Positions 7,160-64,000 of a DNA stretch of 64,000 nucleotides are shown one piece after another (the stretch's first letter is position 1; each line of letters starts with the position of its first letter). Source of the stretch: a virus. Taxonomy: Duplodnaviria > Heunggongvirae > Uroviricota > Caudoviricetes. The notes under the pieces are model-generated. The model had not been told where the DNA came from, did not search any database, and was given only the letters and a program-made list of their open reading frames with translations. The stretch lies in the IMG/VR virus record IMGVR_UViG_2880372215_000004, one strand, 5' to 3'. Both the position numbers and the translations under genes were made by a program.

Positions 7160-7311
7160 CTTACTGTGTGCTTCTCCAACCATCGGCGCGCACCAGTTTC
7201 GGTTTTAAATGTTTTGCTTTTGGTATACGTCATGGCAGTGAACGTTCCATCCTGGTTGGGGAACACGCCGCACACCAGGGATTCGTTGTTGCCGAGGTCG
7301 ATTTTTTGCAT
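7156..7311 (-). CDS. ydaF: YdaF-like small protein, 51 aa
   Basis: Hand translation of minus strand (MQKIDLGNNESLVCGVFPNQDGTFTAMTYTKSKTFKTETGARRWLEKHTVS); stop overlaps sieB stop. Confidence 0.75.
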   Translation of the reverse strand: MQKIDLGNNESLVCGVFPNQDGTFTAMTYTKSKTFKTETGARRWLEKHTVS

Positions 7312-7321
7312 TTTGCGAATC

Positions 7322-7456
7322 TCACATCTTGTTGCTACGTATAGCGACTTCTGCCTGCCAGAGATCCCAGTCGTTGCTGCGTAAAGCCTGCACAGCCTGG
7401 TTGTAAGTGATACCGCAACAATCCATCAAATACTGAACTACTTCGTAATGCACCAT
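7322..7456 (-). CDS. ydaG: YdaG-like small protein, 44 aa
   Basis: Hand translation of minus strand (MVHYEVVQYLMDCCGITYNQAVQALRSNDWDLWQAEVAIRSNKM). Confidence 0.75.
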   Translation of the reverse strand: MVHYEVVQYLMDCCGITYNQAVQALRSNDWDLWQAEVAIRSNKM

Positions 7457-7743
7457 CTTATCTATCCCCTTAACGCCGGGTGGCGGAACTAACTGCTGCA
7501 CTGCAAAATTTGAATCCCGCCGTCATGTTCATACGCCTCGGGCTGGCTACTTAACCCCTGACCACTGCCTGGTAACTCGAAGTATTGCCCGGCGTTCTGT
7601 GGGGCGGGGTGGGTTGGTAGGTATATAATGTACTTTGTGTTCATCATTGTAAAGTACTTTAAGTACATTTTATGTATAAAAAAATGAGACGGGATAAAGT
7701 GAAGCACAAACCCGGAGGGGGACGCTACCGGATTTATGCTGGT

Positions 7744-8242: not shown

Positions 8243-8497
8243 ATGAACCAGAAAACACTTGAAGATGTAATCAAAACTGTTCGCGTTTCTGTTGTGGCCG
8301 ACGTTTGTGGTGTCAGCCAAAGAGCAATCTACAAATGGATGGATAACGGTAAATTGCCTCGCACAGAATATACCGGCGAAACAAATTACGCTGAAAAAAT
8401 CGCTCATGCATCAAACGGATTATTTTCTGCCGATGCAATTTTAACTATTGGCAGAAATAAAACTACTACGAAAAAGCTGATGGGAGTTGATTCATGA
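8243..8497 (+). CDS. ydaS: Cro-like HTH protein YdaS, 84 aa from MNQKTLEDV
   Basis: ORF 8171..8497; internal ATG 8243; divergent from racR. Confidence 0.75.
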   Translation: MNQKTLEDVIKTVRVSVVADVCGVSQRAIYKWMDNGKLPRTEYTGETNYAEKIAHASNGLFSADAILTIGRNKTTTKKLMGVDS

Positions 8498-8916
8498 AAA
8501 TCAAGCATGAGCACATCGAATCAGTGTTGTTAGCCCTGGCAGCCGAAAAAGGGCAGGCGTGGGTCGCTAACGCAATTACTGAAGAATATCTGCGCCAGGG
8601 GGGCGGCGAATTGCCCCTGGTACCAGGCAAGGACTGGAACAATCAGCAGAATATCTATCATCGTTGGTTGAAAGGTGAAACGAATGCGCAAAGGGAAAAA
8701 ATTCAGAAACTGATCCCTGCGGTTCTGGCAATTCTTCCTCGCGAGCTGCGTCACCGACTCTGCATCTTCGATACCCTGGAACGCCGTGCATTACTGGCGG
8801 CACAGGATGCACTGAGTACGGCAATTGATGCGCATGATGATGCAGTCCAGGCCGTTTACCGTAAAGCACATTTCAGCGGCGGCGGTTCTCCTAGCGATTC
8901 TGTCGTAGTGCATTGA
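8494..8916 (+). CDS. ydaT: YdaT-like protein, 140 aa
   Basis: ORF track; start overlaps ydaS stop. Confidence 0.8.
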   Translation: MKIKHEHIESVLLALAAEKGQAWVANAITEEYLRQGGGELPLVPGKDWNNQQNIYHRWLKGETNAQREKIQKLIPAVLAILPRELRHRLCIFDTLERRALLAAQDALSTAIDAHDDAVQAVYRKAHFSGGGSPSDSVVVH

Positions 8917-8961
8917 TTGAAATTAATCGTACCGAACTGTTTTGTTCGGTATCAGTTAAAT

Positions 8962-9403
8962 GTAACGCTGCGAGCGTTACAAGGTGAAAACAAATGGCTT
9001 CAAACTGGATAAAGCTCGAAGTTATTACGCCGGATAAGCCGGAAATATTCAGGCTTGCTGAGATTCTGAATATTGATCCAGATGCCGCATTAGGGAAAGT
9101 CATTCGCTTCTGGGCATGGGCGGATCAACAAATGATAGACGGTAACGCAGAGTGTAACGCTCGCGGCGTTACAAAAAGTGCAATAGATCGCATCACTTTT
9201 ATGGCTGGTTTTGCTGATGCGTTAATTCAGGTTGGATGGCTGGTCGAAACTAATGGTGTGTTGTCGCTTCCTAACTTTGAGCGCCATAACGGGAAAAGCT
9301 CTAAAAAACGGGCGGTTACAAACGAGAGAGTAACAAAAATACGAGAACTGAAACGAAAAGGTAACGCTGCCAGCGTTACAAAAACGGATCAAAAAGCGTT
9401 ACC
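8962..9403. repeat. palindromic iteron-like sites GTAACGCT-N-AGCGTTAC (8962-8980, 9154-9172, 9361-9379) plus half-sites at 9313 and 9396
   Basis: Read directly in sequence; one site upstream of ydaU, the others inside it. Confidence 0.6.
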
Positions 9404-9782
9404 AGAGGAAGAGAAAGAGGAAGATATAAATACTTATCTCCCCCTAAATCCCCCTCGCCAAAAACGAGCGTCTAAAAAATTCGAACCGGAGGCTATCGAG
9501 CTGCCTGACTGGTTGCCGGAAACACTCTGGCATGAGTGGGTTCAGTTCAGGCAGGCATTGCGAAAACCGATTCGAACGGAGCAGGGCGCTAACGGGGCGA
9601 TACGGGAGCTGGAAAAATTCCGCCAGCAGGGTTTTTCACCTGAGCAGGTGATTCGACACAGCATCGCCAATGAATACCAGGGCTTGTTCGCGCCGAAAGG
9701 TGTTCGGCCAGAGACGTTGCTCCGACAGATTAACACCGTCTCGTTTCCGGACAGTGCGATCCCGCCAGGCTTCAGGGGGTAA
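8994..9782 (+). CDS. ydaU: replication-initiation-like protein YdaU, 262 aa
   Basis: ORF track; AAGGTGA Shine-Dalgarno; iterons inside gene; followed by DnaC-like ydaV. Confidence 0.75.
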   Translation: MASNWIKLEVITPDKPEIFRLAEILNIDPDAALGKVIRFWAWADQQMIDGNAECNARGVTKSAIDRITFMAGFADALIQVGWLVETNGVLSLPNFERHNGKSSKKRAVTNERVTKIRELKRKGNAASVTKTDQKALPEEEKEEDINTYLPLNPPRQKRASKKFEPEAIELPDWLPETLWHEWVQFRQALRKPIRTEQGANGAIRELEKFRQQGFSPEQVIRHSIANEYQGLFAPKGVRPETLLRQINTVSFPDSAIPPGFRG

Positions 9783-9788
9783 CAGACC

Positions 9789-10535
9789 ATGAAAAATATT
9801 GCGACAGGCGGCGTTCTGGAACGTATCCGCAGACTGGCCCCGCCACATGTAACCGCGCCATTCAGGACGGTGGCGGAGTGGCGCGAGTGGCAACTTGCAG
9901 AAGGCCAGAAACGTTGTGAGGAGATCAACCGTCAGAATCGTCAGTTGCGGGTGGAAAAAATCCTGAATCGCTCCGGCATACAGCCGTTGCACCGCAAATG
10001 CTCGTTTGCGAATTACCAGGTGCAGAACGACGGCCAGCGATACGCGTTGAGTCAGGCGAAATCTATCGCTGACGAACTGGTTACCGGATGCACAAATTTC
10101 GCGTTCAGCGGAAAACCTGGTACCGGAAAAAACCATCTGGCGGCGGCTATCGGGAATCGCCTGCTGAAAGATGGCCAGACAGTGATTGTGGTTACCGTGG
10201 CTGATGTTATGAGCGCCCTGCACGCCAGCTATGACGACGGGCAGTCAGGCGAAAAATTTTTGCGGGAACTGTGCGAAGTTGATCTGCTGGTTCTTGATGA
10301 AATTGGTATTCAGCGCGAGACGAAAAACGAGCAGGTGGTACTGCACCAGATTGTTGATCGCCGGACAGCGTCAATGCGCAGCGTGGGGATGCTGACAAAC
10401 CTGAACTATGAGGCCATGAAAACATTGCTCGGCGAGCGGATTATGGATCGCATGACCATGAACGGCGGGCGCTGGGTGAATTTTAACTGGGAGAGCTGGC
10501 GCCCGAATGTTGGTCAGCCAGGTATTGAGAAGTAA
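9789..10535 (+). CDS. ydaV: DnaC-like helicase loader YdaV, 248 aa, Walker [12 protein letters not shown]
   Basis: ORF track; P-loop and DnaC-like layout. Confidence 0.85.
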
Positions 10536-60987: not shown

Positions 60988-61140
60988 TCAGTCAGTGTTT
61001 CTGGCTAACCAGCGACGCGCGCCAGCTTCAGTTTTAAACGTTTTGCTTTTGGTATACGTCATCGCGGTGAACGTACCGTCCTGGTTGGGGAACACGCCAC
61101 ATACCAGAGATTCGTTGTTGCCAAGATTGAGCGTATCCAT
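60988..61140 (-). CDS. YdaF-like small protein, 50 aa from MDTLNLGNN
   Basis: ORF 60988..61221; near-identical to ydaF at 7156..7311; GAGGT before ATG 61140. Confidence 0.65.
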   Translation of the reverse strand: MDTLNLGNNESLVCGVFPNQDGTFTAMTYTKSKTFKTEAGARRWLARNTD

Positions 61141-61432
61141 GTTGACCTCATTTCCCCTTAACGCCGGGGTAGCGGAACAAAAACCTGCTGCATAGTTATT
61201 AAAGTTGAACCCTGCCGTCATGTTCTTACGCCTCGGGCTGGCTACTTAACCCCTGACCACTGCCTGGTAACTCGAAGTATTGCCCTGCATTCTGTGGGGC
61301 GGGGTGAGGGAATGAATGAAGTTTAGAAAAACGAACATTTAAGGTCAATGTTTTTTTATCAAAACATTTTAAGCAGGCAGCTGTTACGCCATCACTACGA
61401 TGGCATACAGTTAATCAAATAGATGAGGTTGG

Positions 61433-62071
61433 TTAAATATCTTGTTGAATTTTAAAGCATACTCCCAATATGCAAGATAGATCATCCAGCATAATTGAAG
61501 GGTAGCGAGGATTCGTGGGGACTAAAAGAATATCCGGCCCTTCTATCTCCAGTTTGCGAATGACAGGCGTTGTGGTCCCTTTGGGTAAGGCAAGGACAAT
61601 ATTTCCTGGTTGTACGATTCGATCGGGATCAACAAAAACTGTTGAACCATTTGGGATGGAAACTCCACCACCAGATGTCGACATACTGTCACTCTCTAGA
61701 ACAACAGCAAAGGTATTGGCCGGGATTTCTCCGACAAGCTGCACACAAGAGGTTATTGAGGAATTTTTCATATAATCACTCCAGCTTGCTGCCTGCTGAA
61801 GTGATAGTAGCGGAACCGTTTTTATCGGCGGTAAAGATAGATCAAGCGAATCACCTGTATTTAACTCTCCTCCATTAAGAAGCCAATTTTCGTTTACTTT
61901 CAATATCTTTGCCAGTGAACTTATGTAACGCGAGGACGGCGCTCCTCCACCGTTCATCCATTGACTTACGGAGCCTTTTGATGCGCCAGTGGCATTGACA
62001 AGGTCTTTGCCTTTCAAGTTTAGCGCATGCATACGTTGGGTTATGCGTTCAGATATTGTTTGCTTGTTCAT
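61433..62071 (-). CDS. CI-like repressor (HTH plus S24 LexA-like peptidase domain), 212 aa
   Basis: ORF track; Ser in VLESDSM and downstream Lys; divergent from cro-like gene. Confidence 0.75.
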   Translation of the reverse strand: MNKQTISERITQRMHALNLKGKDLVNATGASKGSVSQWMNGGGAPSSRYISSLAKILKVNENWLLNGGELNTGDSLDLSLPPIKTVPLLSLQQAASWSDYMKNSSITSCVQLVGEIPANTFAVVLESDSMSTSGGGVSIPNGSTVFVDPDRIVQPGNIVLALPKGTTTPVIRKLEIEGPDILLVPTNPRYPSIMLDDLSCILGVCFKIQQDI

Positions 62072-62162
62072 GTTTTGATTTTAAAACACAGATGGTTTTG
62101 TTTCTTGACTTTCTTTGGTTTTGATTATTAAACTTTTGGCGTTCAGTTTTATGGAGCGACTC

Positions 62163-62405
62163 ATGAAAAAATCAGAAGTATTAGGCTATTTTGGCGGAGT
62201 TGTTAAAACAGCCGCCGCTCTAGGAACGTCAAAAACCACAGTCAGCATGTGGGGGGAAGACGTTCCGTGGAAATGGGCGTTGCTAATTCAGGCAGTCACT
62301 GCCGGGGCGCTCAAATATGAGTTACACATACCGACGGTTGTCATTCCCGATTCTGATCATAATCCGCCTTCTAACCAAGGGGGGATTCATGAAAATCAAG
62401 CATGA
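62163..62405 (+). CDS. Cro-like small HTH protein, 80 aa
   Basis: ORF 62115..62405; GGAG 6 nt before ATG 62163. Confidence 0.6.
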   Translation: MKKSEVLGYFGGVVKTAAALGTSKTTVSMWGEDVPWKWALLIQAVTAGALKYELHIPTVVIPDSDHNPPSNQGGIHENQA

Positions 62406-62814
62406 ACACATCCGCATGGCGATGAATGCCTGGGCGCGTCCTGATGGCGAAAAAGTTCCGGCAGCTGGAATAACCCAGGCTTATTTTGAGTTGGGTATGA
62501 CGTTTCCTGAACTGTACGACGACAGCCATCCGGAAGCCCTGGCTCGCAATACCCAGAAAATTTTCCGCTGGATAGAGAAAGACACCCCTGATGCAGTTGA
62601 AAAAATGCAGGCTCTGTTACCGGCGATCGAAAAGGCAATGCCGCCTCTGCTGGTGGCCCGTATGCGCAGTCACAGCTCTGAATATTACCGTGAGATCGTC
62701 GAACGGAGGGATCGGCTGGTGAAAGATGTGGATGATTTTGTCGCAGCGGCGATCGCCTGGGGCACCCTGACTAACAGTGGGGGTCAGCCTGGTAATGCTG
62801 TTGTCGTGCATTGA
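62389..62814 (+). CDS. YdaT-like protein, 141 aa
   Basis: ORF 62317..62814; N-terminus MKIKHEHI and C-terminus VVVH match ydaT at 8494. Confidence 0.7.
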   Translation: MKIKHEHIRMAMNAWARPDGEKVPAAGITQAYFELGMTFPELYDDSHPEALARNTQKIFRWIEKDTPDAVEKMQALLPAIEKAMPPLLVARMRSHSSEYYREIVERRDRLVKDVDDFVAAAIAWGTLTNSGGQPGNAVVVH

Positions 62815-62882
62815 CCAACAATATTCATGCCGGATTTCTTCCGGATGTTCGAGGGTAAAGTTCGGTATCAGAAGAGGTGAGT

Positions 62883-64000
62883 ATGGCTAATGCCTGGCTC
62901 AGATTGTGGCATGACATGCCAAATGACCCCAAGTGGCGAACGATTGCCAGGGTATCAGGACAGCCAATCGCAACAGTGATGGCAGTGTATATCCATCTTC
63001 TGGTGAGCGCGTCACGAAATGTCACGACATGTCACGGCGTGTCACTACGTGGTCACATTGATGTCACGACGGAAGATTTAGCAAGTGCGCTTGATGTGAC
63101 GGAAGACGTAATTGATTCAATTTTGCATGCAATGCAGGGGCGGGTTCTGGATGGTGACCTTATTTCCGGATGGGAAAAACGTCAGGTGCTGAAAGAGGAC
63201 AATGGTAACGTTTCGCAAACGGCAAAATCCCCGGCAGAGCGCAAGAGAGCGCAGCGGGAGCGGGAAAAGCTGCGGAAACATAATGCTGATTGTCACGATG
63301 AGTCACGACGTGTCACGCATCTGTCACGACAAGTCACGACAGATAAAGATACAGATAAAGATACAGATACAGAATTAAACCCCACACATAACGCGCGCGA
63401 GAGTATTCCGACCAGTGAGTCGAATGGTGCGCCGTTGCAGACAGCCGAACCTGAATACCTGGACGGCCTGAGCGAACCGATCGGGAAATTTTCGATGACT
63501 ACTGTCTGGCAGCCGTCGCCGGATTTTCGACAACGGGCAGCAGTGTGGGGTATGGCTCTGCCTGAGCCGGAATTTACACCTGCTGAGCTTGCCGCATTCC
63601 GGGATTACTGGATGGCGGAGGGGAAGGTTTTCACGCAGGTTCAGTGGGAGCAGAAATTTGCCCGCCACGTGCAGCACGTCAGGGCACAGGTAAAACCAGT
63701 CAGCAAGGGGGAAGCCATGCAGCATCAGGTGGCACGGCATCACGGGCAGTTCAGGAAATCCGGGCTGCACGCGAACAGTGGGAACGTGACAACGGATTTA
63801 TCAGCAACGGAAACGGCCTGGAAGCTGTGGGAGCTCATGGGGGAGGTGTATTCGAACCGCTGGACTCAGAAGAACGGGGCCGCACCTTCGAAGCTCTGGA
63901 TTGCCCAGATTGGTGCGATGACTGAACAGCAAATCCGTCTGGTGTGCCGTCAGTGCATGGACCGCTGCCGGGCGGGTGAAACGTGGCCCCCGGACCTGGC
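62883..64000 (+). CDS. replication initiator O-like protein, partial (no stop inside window)
   Basis: Hand-translated open frame from ATG 62883 with GAGGTGA Shine-Dalgarno; not in ORF track; iterons inside gene. Confidence 0.5.
   Translation, partial: MANAWLRLWHDMPNDPKWRTIARVSGQPIATVMAVYIHLLVSASRNVTTCHGVSLRGHIDVTTEDLASALDVTEDVIDSILHAMQGRVLDGDLISGWEKRQVLKEDNGNVSQTAKSPAERKRAQREREKLRKHNADCHDESRRVTHLSRQVTTDKDTDKDTDTELNPTHNARESIPTSESNGAPLQTAEPEYLDGLSEPIGKFSMTTVWQPSPDFRQRAAVWGMALPEPEFTPAELAAFRDYWMAEGKVFTQVQWEQKFARHVQHVRAQVKPVSKGEAMQHQVARHHGQFRKSGLHANSGNVTTDLSATETAWKLWELMGEVYSNRWTQKNGAAPSKLWIAQIGAMTEQQIRLVCRQCMDRCRAGETWPPDL
63011..63372. repeat. origin-like iterons: 11 TGTCACG-type repeats in two clusters with ~10-bp phasing (63011-63070, 63293-63340), then GATAAAGATACA repeats
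   Basis: Read directly in sequence inside the O-like gene. Confidence 0.7.

Follow-up and report, generated by a model that had tools for sequence, protein, structure and literature searches.

That a replication origin can reside inside the gene of its own initiator is already known from phage lambda, phage SPP1 and plasmid pSK41. In lambda and Shiga toxin (Stx) phages, iterons and an A/T-rich tract lie midway along the O gene, at the position of the inter-domain linker, and extra iterons add 13 residues to the Stx O protein (PMC7466680). Similarly, the oriL region of SPP1, which consists of direct repeats plus an A/T-rich unwinding element, lies inside gene 38, which encodes the replisome organizer G38P (PMC6316719). 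In pSK41, the Rep boxes are found centrally in rep, where the origin encodes a dispensable linker of RepA, an initiator with a DnaD-like winged helix and a host- or partner-specific, exchangeable C-terminal domain (PMC5703833). For the Rac prophage, an active origin named oriJ has been reported (PMC3945230). Here, we describe a candidate for a further origin of this kind, situated at the end of a 64,000-nucleotide stretch of viral DNA (IMG/VR record IMGVR_UViG_2880372215_000004; hereafter the window). This end belongs to a lambdoid prophage of Escherichia coli O157:H7 and constitutes its early-right region. The element consists of two iteron arrays and an A/T-rich tract within the first 500 bp of a replication-initiator gene (62883..64000, plus strand), which starts with the ATG at 62883 and runs off the end of the window, so that its 5' part is available. 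Based on sequence comparisons, we estimate with a probability of roughly 0.77 that this feature is the vegetative replication origin of the prophage, contained in the coding sequence of its own initiator.

Phased iterons and an easily melted tract

Array 1 comprises six direct iterons (63011..63068, plus strand; starting at 63011, 63021, 63031, 63041, 63052 and 63063) and begins 128 bp into the gene. Four of them read exactly GTCACG (63011, 63021, 63031 and 63063), and the two others are the variants GTCACT (63041) and GTCACA (63052). At a distance of about 225 bp, array 2 contributes five direct GTCACG iterons (63292..63338, plus strand; 63292, 63302, 63312, 63323 and 63333) and directly abuts the A/T-rich tract. 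The spacings of 10, 10, 10, 11 and 11 bp in array 1 and of 10, 10, 11 and 10 bp in array 2 correspond to about one helical turn, and all eleven copies share the same orientation. Each unit combines the conserved word GTCAC(G) with a variable spacer of 4-5 bp, forming a head-to-tail repeat of 10-11 bp with a 6-bp core and without detected dyad symmetry; the sole inverted repeat in the region is a weak 12-nucleotide pair (83% complementary) across two neighbouring array 2 iterons. An earlier note on this sequence had listed six plus five GTCACG-type repeats with a spacing of about 10 bp. These repeats are indeed present, at coordinates that were right to within one or two bases, and their periodicity was recovered with Tandem Repeats Finder, which reports period-10 arrays at 63011-63056 and 63292-63340. 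On the plus strand of the 64-kb window, GTCAC occurs 67 times, with 11 of these copies inside 330 bp, a cluster whose Poisson probability is ~1.5e-13 (~3e-11 when corrected for the number of windows). After 300 shuffles, by comparison, the densest 330-bp stretch contained 3.3 copies on average and never more than 6, as opposed to the 11 observed. The clustering of GTCAC is far beyond chance.

The tract following array 2 (63339..63379, plus strand) is A/T-rich and purine-biased, reads (ACAGATAAAGAT)n and then AATTAAA, and is predicted to serve as the DNA-unwinding element. It is made up of GATAAA/GATACA units, detected by Tandem Repeats Finder as a period 6/12 array (ACAGATAAAGAT) at 63339-63373, and contains 74% A+T and 71% purines on the plus strand. 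Judged by nearest-neighbour free energy, no other 30-bp stretch between 61400 and 64000 (2.6 kb) is as unstable as 63349-63379, at 2.8 standard deviations above the mean, and the tract is less stable than promoter-bearing intergenic DNA. The AT-rich repeats previously described behind the iterons are thus confirmed. An equivalent tract exists in almost all family members, with every type of iteron. Directly to its right, a conserved box, CCCCACACATAACGCGCGCGAGA (63380..63402, plus strand), may mark where the origin ends on this side. Behind the tract, this box recurs in loci from E. albertii (L084), Serratia (L090) and Sphingomonas (L086) as well as in ydaU of Rac-SA53, which has an unrelated N-domain, and DNA-level conservation of the sequence AAACCCCACACATAACGCGCG(..GTGCGCG) extends from E. 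coli to Sphingomonas. In L084 and L090, the box includes a GC-rich palindrome that is shortened in the window. The box may represent a further element of the origin.

Copies of the GTCACG hexamer fall into each of the three reading frames, where they encode VT, SR and CH, and a repeat unit of 10 bp cannot reflect periodicity of the peptide. For a comparison across species, one genome per species was scanned for peptide patterns located outside the arrays (WHDMPND, EDLASALDV), yielding 39 loci (L084-L122) from Entomomonas, Pseudomonas, Bordetella, Acidovorax, Chromobacterium, Aquitalea, Gilvimarinus, Castellaniella, Serratia, Rahnella, Erwinia, Pantoea, Sphingomonas, Marinobacter and others. 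Codon usage was then analysed in 23 loci that are gapless over the first 330 nucleotides (21 scan loci and the phage loci L082 and L083; from Entomomonas, Pseudomonas, Bordetella, Chromobacterium, Acidovorax, Gilvimarinus and enterobacteria) and show a mean pairwise nucleotide identity of 69%. Within the iteron cores, codons are essentially fixed (S44 TCA 22/23, V47 GTC 23/23, T48 ACG 23/23, G50 GGT 23/23, H51 CAC 22/22, V54 GTC 23/23, T55 ACG 22/23), whereas equally conserved residues outside the cores are each encoded by three to six codons (R7 by six, V32 by four), and R49, whose third base falls into a spacer, by four. A dominant codon reaching at least 95% is found in 8/10 array columns as opposed to 1/45 other columns (Fisher p=3e-7). 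The sole outside column of this kind is V65 (GTG in 20/20), and the remaining 44/45 conserved degenerate residues use several codons. Moreover, in three Pseudomonas loci (L089, L105 and L111), the sequence GTCACGACAGA...AGATAAGAGAAG after array 2 is kept in a different reading frame. Because the word is read in three frames, its codons are fixed over the cores and the DNA is conserved across a change of frame, these comparisons indicate that selection acts on the DNA of the arrays and not on the peptide.

The same picture emerges among 31 distinct close relatives from IMG/VR, in which the cores are almost invariant, while the spacers vary (ACGT/CATA, CATCT/ACAT) and the 11-bp step moves. Since the peptide patterns used to scan viral contigs overlap the arrays, that scan is circular with regard to presence or absence and was used for micro-variation only. 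Two loci, L053 and L054, have gained one 10-bp array 2 iteron, leading to a frameshift and truncation of the protein at 157 residues, and L054 has in addition lost one 12-bp tract unit; truncated products of this sort seem to be the basis of PHROG 21423 (157 positions).

The initiator and the architecture of its relatives

The initiator, named 'phage replisome organizer' by NCBI, comprises a winged helix (residues 1-~100), a basic helix (117-135), a disordered linker (137-169) and a DnaT-like domain (203-269). A Pfam scan of the whole protein identified only the DnaT DNA-binding domain PF17948 (residues 203-269, E=3e-17). Pfam gave no lambda O match (Phage_rep_O and related models) and, at E<=0.01, neither a RepA_N (PF06970) nor a DnaD match, leaving the N-domain without any family. 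The full-length DnaT equivalog NF002770 scores 94.5 bits with a cut-off of 201, in keeping with the presence of the DnaT DNA-binding domain only. In PHROG, the protein groups among replication-initiation proteins, with weak matches to the replisome-organizer families 4880 (E=2e-6) and 5968 (E=8e-4) and to 'DnaD-like helicase loader' families. The designation of the gene as O-like in the earlier note is therefore justified by its position and architecture but not by homology, given the lack of a Pfam lambda O match and the combination of a DnaD-like winged helix with a DnaT-like domain. A tblastn search with the initiator against the rest of the window did not reveal any paralogue.

An AlphaFold2 model of residues 1-169, calculated from a 37-sequence alignment, shows a confident winged-helix core with blocks at predicted local distance difference test (pLDDT) values of 91-95. 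It contains helices at residues 4-14, 16-25, 29-45, 63-70 and 74-84, a beta wing at 85-94 and the basic helix at 117-135; the loop formed by residues 46-62 is modelled with low confidence (pLDDT <50 at 49-54), and residues 137-169 are disordered. The closest folds with a low root-mean-square deviation are those of the DnaD N-terminal domain and the pSK41-type RepA initiator, so that the N-domain, as modelled, adopts a winged-helix fold of the DnaD-like/RepA_N type. Array 1 encodes residues 43-62, which form the end of helix 3 and the low-confidence loop, and the disordered linker (DCHDESRRVTHLSRQVT) is encoded by array 2 together with the A/T tract. The DNA elements thus coincide with the least constrained parts of the protein.

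In each of the 26 GTCAC-type loci, three to five exact copies, spaced by 10/11 bp, lie immediately upstream of the AGATAAAGA tract and are directly followed by (A/C)(C/T)AGATAAAGATAAAGA, and nearly all of these loci have four copies at nucleotides 129-160 of the gene, corresponding to array 1. The lineage of the window possesses two extra array 1 copies, which amount to 21 bp, or seven residues, in the low-confidence loop. Distant members without GTCAC contain an alternative word, 10-bp phased in most cases, followed by the GATAAA/GATACA tract. This word is CGAACGC in L112, L114, L115, L117 and L120 and GTAACGC in the loci from Sphingomonas (L086) and Marinobacter (L116), with a less regular arrangement in L106 and L109. 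Each such gene uses one word type at both array positions, and the proteins also differ outside the arrays, with GTCAC types having a nine-residue GNPETGAKS sequence before the basic helix and the others an ERAKRWR-like sequence. The fixed GTG codon of V65, seen in 20/20 type-A relatives, combines with the next codon to create a possible single inverted core copy 28 bp past array 1 (63096..63100, minus strand; GTGAC on the plus strand). Nearly all GTCAC-type loci have GTGAC at the corresponding site, whereas it is missing from the CGAACGC type, and L109, whose repeats read GTAAC, has GTTAC in its place. On the basis of these sequences, we have moderate confidence that the inverted GTGAC represents a further copy of the core.

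The N-domain, the arrays and the tract (nucleotides 1-~490) stay together in recombination and are joined as one block to unrelated C-terminal domains and partners. The partner gene is P-like here, DnaC-like in pAEv1818, a phage of Aeromonas, and DnaB-like in a circular lambdoid element of P. aeruginosa that measures 50.9 kb and was deposited as a plasmid, and in phage Tritos the N-terminal block is followed by a different C-domain. The junctions between mosaic initiator genes fall inside the GATAAAGATACA tract (63343-63376). Phages Evi and Tritos match nucleotides 1-486/492 of the gene, and Rac-SA53 ydaU and the PPompW prophages match from nucleotide 461/494 on; the N-terminal and C-terminal blocks thus have different nearest relatives. 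Because YdaU of Rac-SA53 shares the tract, the box behind it and the DnaT-like half but neither the N-domain nor GTCACG, the layout is modular, with N-domain-specific sites, a common tract and an exchangeable C-domain and partner. As a side observation, the 50.9-kb circular P. aeruginosa 'plasmids' (L123, CP137943.1; and CP124671.1) are lambdoid phage genomes with genes for an S24 repressor, CII, an initiator of the GTCACG family, a DnaB-like helicase, NinB and NinG; they are either extrachromosomal phages or phage-plasmids. Two further proteins, from a Serratia metagenome-assembled genome and from Pantoea (L119 and L121; 396-434 residues), have the same N-terminal ~105 residues but then a different insert (YVYYVATTDGDVVRVGISRNPWAR...), and at the usual positions their genes lack both phased arrays and a GATAAA tract.

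A predicted iteron-type origin and its alternatives

The best reading of these data is an iteron-type origin that is formed by array 2 and the tract, with the upstream array as an auxiliary element. The locus unites phased repeats in one orientation, an adjacent, easily melted tract and DNA-level selection with initiator-linked change. As the joint inheritance of the arrays with the N-domain would on its own be trivial linkage, the case for an origin is built on codon fixation, the change of frame and the matching change of word. The origin layout that had been proposed for this lambdoid initiator gene gains support from the fixed core codons, the conservation across the frame change and the identical word change at both arrays, together with the universal downstream AGATAAAGATAAAGA tract, which constitutes the least stable DNA locally. 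Mechanistically, the N-terminal winged-helix domain would recognize the 6-bp word GTCACG, and the 10-11 bp repeats would place all sites on one face of the helix, thereby promoting cooperative binding of the initiator. A bent or wrapped nucleoprotein complex could then assemble on the five sites of array 2, with the six sites of array 1 and perhaps the one inverted site adding to it, and the resulting strain would open the adjoining tract at 63339-63379. The DnaT-like domain and the downstream lambda-P-like loader would subsequently bring the host DnaB helicase to the opened DNA. We infer the identity of the binder, the melting of the tract, the loading of the helicase at this site and the assignment of array 1 to the origin rather than to its control; array 1 could contribute to the complex as an accessory component, take part in looping or serve for control.

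Several observations weigh against this interpretation. Array 1 has no adjacent A/T tract, and a 6-bp word is short for specific recognition, so that strong cooperativity would be needed. The co-inheritance of arrays and N-domain is partly trivial because the arrays lie inside the N-domain gene. Regarding the initiator itself, the match to TIGR01714 (phage_rep_org_N) is weak (E=0.0049, 17.1 bits with a cut-off of 49.8), although it spans model positions 1-118 of 119, and sequence searches of the PDB, starting either from the sequence alone or from a profile of 37 sequences, returned nothing usable. A literature search found no publication on a GTCACG-iteron origin family, with subscription journals mostly outside its coverage, so that an earlier prediction may exist. 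Finally, the frame of the initiator is broken in the window by a run of five G residues at 63707-63711. Six G are present at this site in strain TR01, whose 2-kb early region is identical to the window except for this one base, and in all close IMG/VR relatives of the same context, which encode a conserved initiator of 343-347 residues. The tail read in the native frame (...FEPLDxEERGxxFEALDCxDWxDD) is conserved even in distant relatives, including those from Rahnella and Serratia. Either the loss of one G is a frameshift mutation or a sequencing error, or the run is prone to slippage. Given this frame break and the truncation of integrase and recE in the TR01 copy of the prophage, the local copy may not fire alone.

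These defects lend some weight to the idea that the locus is an origin by descent that is inactive in this strain, with the repeats being a relic of recent ancestry in a decaying prophage. Apart from the frameshifted, partial integrase and the truncated recE in TR01 and the shifted initiator frame in the window, the iteron gains that truncate the protein at 157 residues in L053 and L054 fit this notion. However, none of the eleven cores is damaged, nor is the tract, and many relatives carry identical ones; the three copies of the module in TR01 could allow an initiator to act in trans, and the five G may be a sequencing error, since the listed full-length matches span one extra base, except for H24, which is split by IS1203. 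We therefore consider inactivity possible but rather unlikely. Alternatively, the arrays could mainly be control sites, acting through roadblock autorepression, titration or handcuffing, either between the two arrays or between sibling prophages, with the true unwinding site lying elsewhere. The position of array 1, early in the gene and away from any A/T tract, would suit such a role, two separated arrays generally recall the origin-plus-control iteron sets of plasmids, and up to five module copies per E. coli genome would make titration and handcuffing relevant. Yet, a control-only role fits array 2 poorly because the unwinding tract, which is the region's least stable DNA, directly adjoins this array in all cases. 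Moreover, the complete genome record of phage Tritos contains no GTCAC cluster beyond both arrays and no distant cluster reminiscent of SPP1 oriR, and the linker position matches that of proven origins (PMC7466680, PMC5703833). Initiation and control are, in addition, not mutually exclusive, and a predominantly regulatory function appears quite unlikely.

The shortness of the word and the indirect identification of the initiator as its binder could also be reconciled with recognition by another host or phage protein, involved in packaging, partition or transcription control. However, no DnaA box (<=1 mismatch) is present in or beside the arrays, the nearest one being located at 62727, and 62000-64000 contains no exact match to the IHF consensus. 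The word changes between initiator subfamilies though their hosts overlap, and this change is accompanied by the GNPETGAKS versus ERAKRWR difference. Because motif and initiator change together, while the neighbouring genes vary between loci and the arrays persist, a different binder is very unlikely. There is virtually no room for a peptide repeat or chance composition devoid of any function at the DNA level. The segments do encode recurring peptides (VT, SR, CHD), but synonymous sites are fixed only over the cores, chance is excluded, and Rfam gives no RNA family match. The peptide repeat was rejected on the grounds of three-frame reading, core codon fixation and conservation across the frame change.

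If the arrays and the tract indeed act as an iteron-type origin, the invariant peptide motifs SRNVTRGH, CHDxSRxVT and DKDKD would be shadows of DNA elements and not functional sites of the protein. Some conserved 'motifs' of the initiator would thus be explained as DNA sites, which matters for annotation and for the inference of function from protein conservation. A switch of word (GTCACG, GTAACGC, CGAACGC) would rewrite both arrays and the loop of the DNA-binding domain in concert, and the three words would be predicted to define incompatibility or cross-activation groups among co-resident prophages. As the same word type may be present in up to five prophages per E. coli genome, cross-firing or titration would be possible across the O157 prophage pool. 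The prediction extends to the lambdoid prophages of O157:H7, in which replication drives gene dosage after induction, and it provides a concrete candidate origin for a module that is common in E. coli and in phages of many Proteobacteria. The combination of a putative DnaD-like N-domain with 6-bp words in 10-bp head-to-tail units, two arrays and three word types was not found in the searchable literature. It is tempting, if decidedly tentative, to speculate that these loci make up a pan-proteobacterial, previously undescribed family of phage origins, in which a word of 6-7 bp forms two arrays with helical phasing within the initiator coding sequence.

Prophage context and comparison with known systems

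The 2-kb segment 62000-64000 is ~100% identical to many O157:H7 chromosomes. The early-right gene order starts with a cI-like repressor gene of the S24/helix-turn-helix type (61433-62071, minus strand), followed by a P22-Cro-like gene, a gene in the YdaT/cII position, the replication-initiator gene and the lambda-P-like gene. Upstream of cro, a consensus scan alone points to a pR-like promoter candidate (62105..62134, plus strand; 9/12 matches), with the number of hits not above chance. As the hit counts of both the promoter and the terminator scans are at chance level, they are used for context only. Transcription from the pR-like candidate would cross cro, the ydaT/cII-like gene and the initiator gene with its arrays, as in lambda. 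The replication module is present in 2128 of 5426 complete E. coli genomes (about 39%), in up to five copies each. The window contains a second prophage (prophage 1), and the two share short stretches of 86-97% identical DNA near their immunity regions (7168-7611 and 8489-8517 versus 60996-61307 and 62384-62412), which could be substrates for recombination between them.

The lambda-P-like helicase-loader gene (63717..64000, plus strand, as far as contained in the window) likely encodes the partner of the initiator, and its product in TR01 is recognized by Pfam as Phage_lambda_P. Because of the 5-G run, it is in frame with the initiator in the window, and the fused open reading frame matches the P-like loader family PHROG 109 at residues 296-372; another family, PHROG 15931 (482 positions), covers the fused initiator/P-like form. 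The P-like gene probably starts with the ATG at 63717 (MQHQVARHH...), whereas the annotation pipeline PGAP uses a later ATG. With the start at 63717, it would share 63717-63925 with the end of the native (6-G) initiator gene, read in another frame, and this overlap of ~70 codons would be unusually long.

Within the window, the initiator of prophage 1 (8994-9782) belongs to a different family without any Pfam hit and is followed by a DnaC/IstB-like gene (9789-10535). It is associated with three 21-bp palindromes, TGTAACGC-N5-GCGTTACA, at 8961, 9153 and 9361 (8961-9381), one just upstream of the start codon and two inside the gene. The two prophages had been described as differing entirely in this respect. 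This statement holds for the arrangement of their sites, but the half-site of the palindromes is only one base away from TGTCACG and equals GTAACGC, the direct-repeat word of other members of the GTCACG initiator family. A partial relationship is also seen with ydaU of Rac-SA53. Its C-terminal, DnaT-like half is 88% identical at the DNA level to the initiator gene described here, and both have the AAAGATACAGATACAGA tract as well as the CCCCACACATA-GCGCGCG box. However, its N-domain is unrelated, it lacks GTCACG arrays, and the region upstream of its tract shows, as read by eye, a different inverted motif, GTTCAAAC...GTTTGAAC.

Compared with the lambda origin and the six-iteron variants of the Stx phages 933W/P27, the candidate origin likewise falls into the linker-coding part of an initiator gene, with the repeats preceding the A/T-rich tract in the direction of transcription. 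In both cases, the pR operon contains the initiator gene between cro and cII on its upstream side and a P-type loader gene behind it, and extra iterons lengthen the protein, by 13 residues in Stx O and by seven here. However, the initiator is no homologue of lambda O. The lambda iterons, with a length of ~19 bp, are long, bent and internally symmetric and bound by O dimers, whereas the present ones have a 6-bp core in head-to-tail units of 10-11 bp and are split into two arrays, the first of which lies inside the region encoding the DNA-binding domain. Lacking both O homology and long dyad iterons, the locus falls outside the lambda-O/ori family.

The similarity to SPP1 includes the name 'phage replisome organizer' and the alignment of the N-domain over the full length of TIGR01714, albeit at 17 vs 49.8 bits. 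In SPP1, the second binding region, oriR, is ~13 kb away, whereas here the second array is found in the same gene at the short distance given above; furthermore, the hosts are Proteobacteria and the C-terminal domain is DnaT-like. The RepA system of pSK41 differs from the present locus in being plasmid-borne rather than part of a phage or prophage, in belonging to a Pfam family, RepA_N, that is not matched here, and in having its four Rep boxes in one cluster. Antisense-RNA copy control was not seen here, although it was not specifically searched for. What the candidate origin has in common with pSK41 is its central position in the initiator gene, at the linker, and the exchangeable C-terminal domain of the protein that it would serve.

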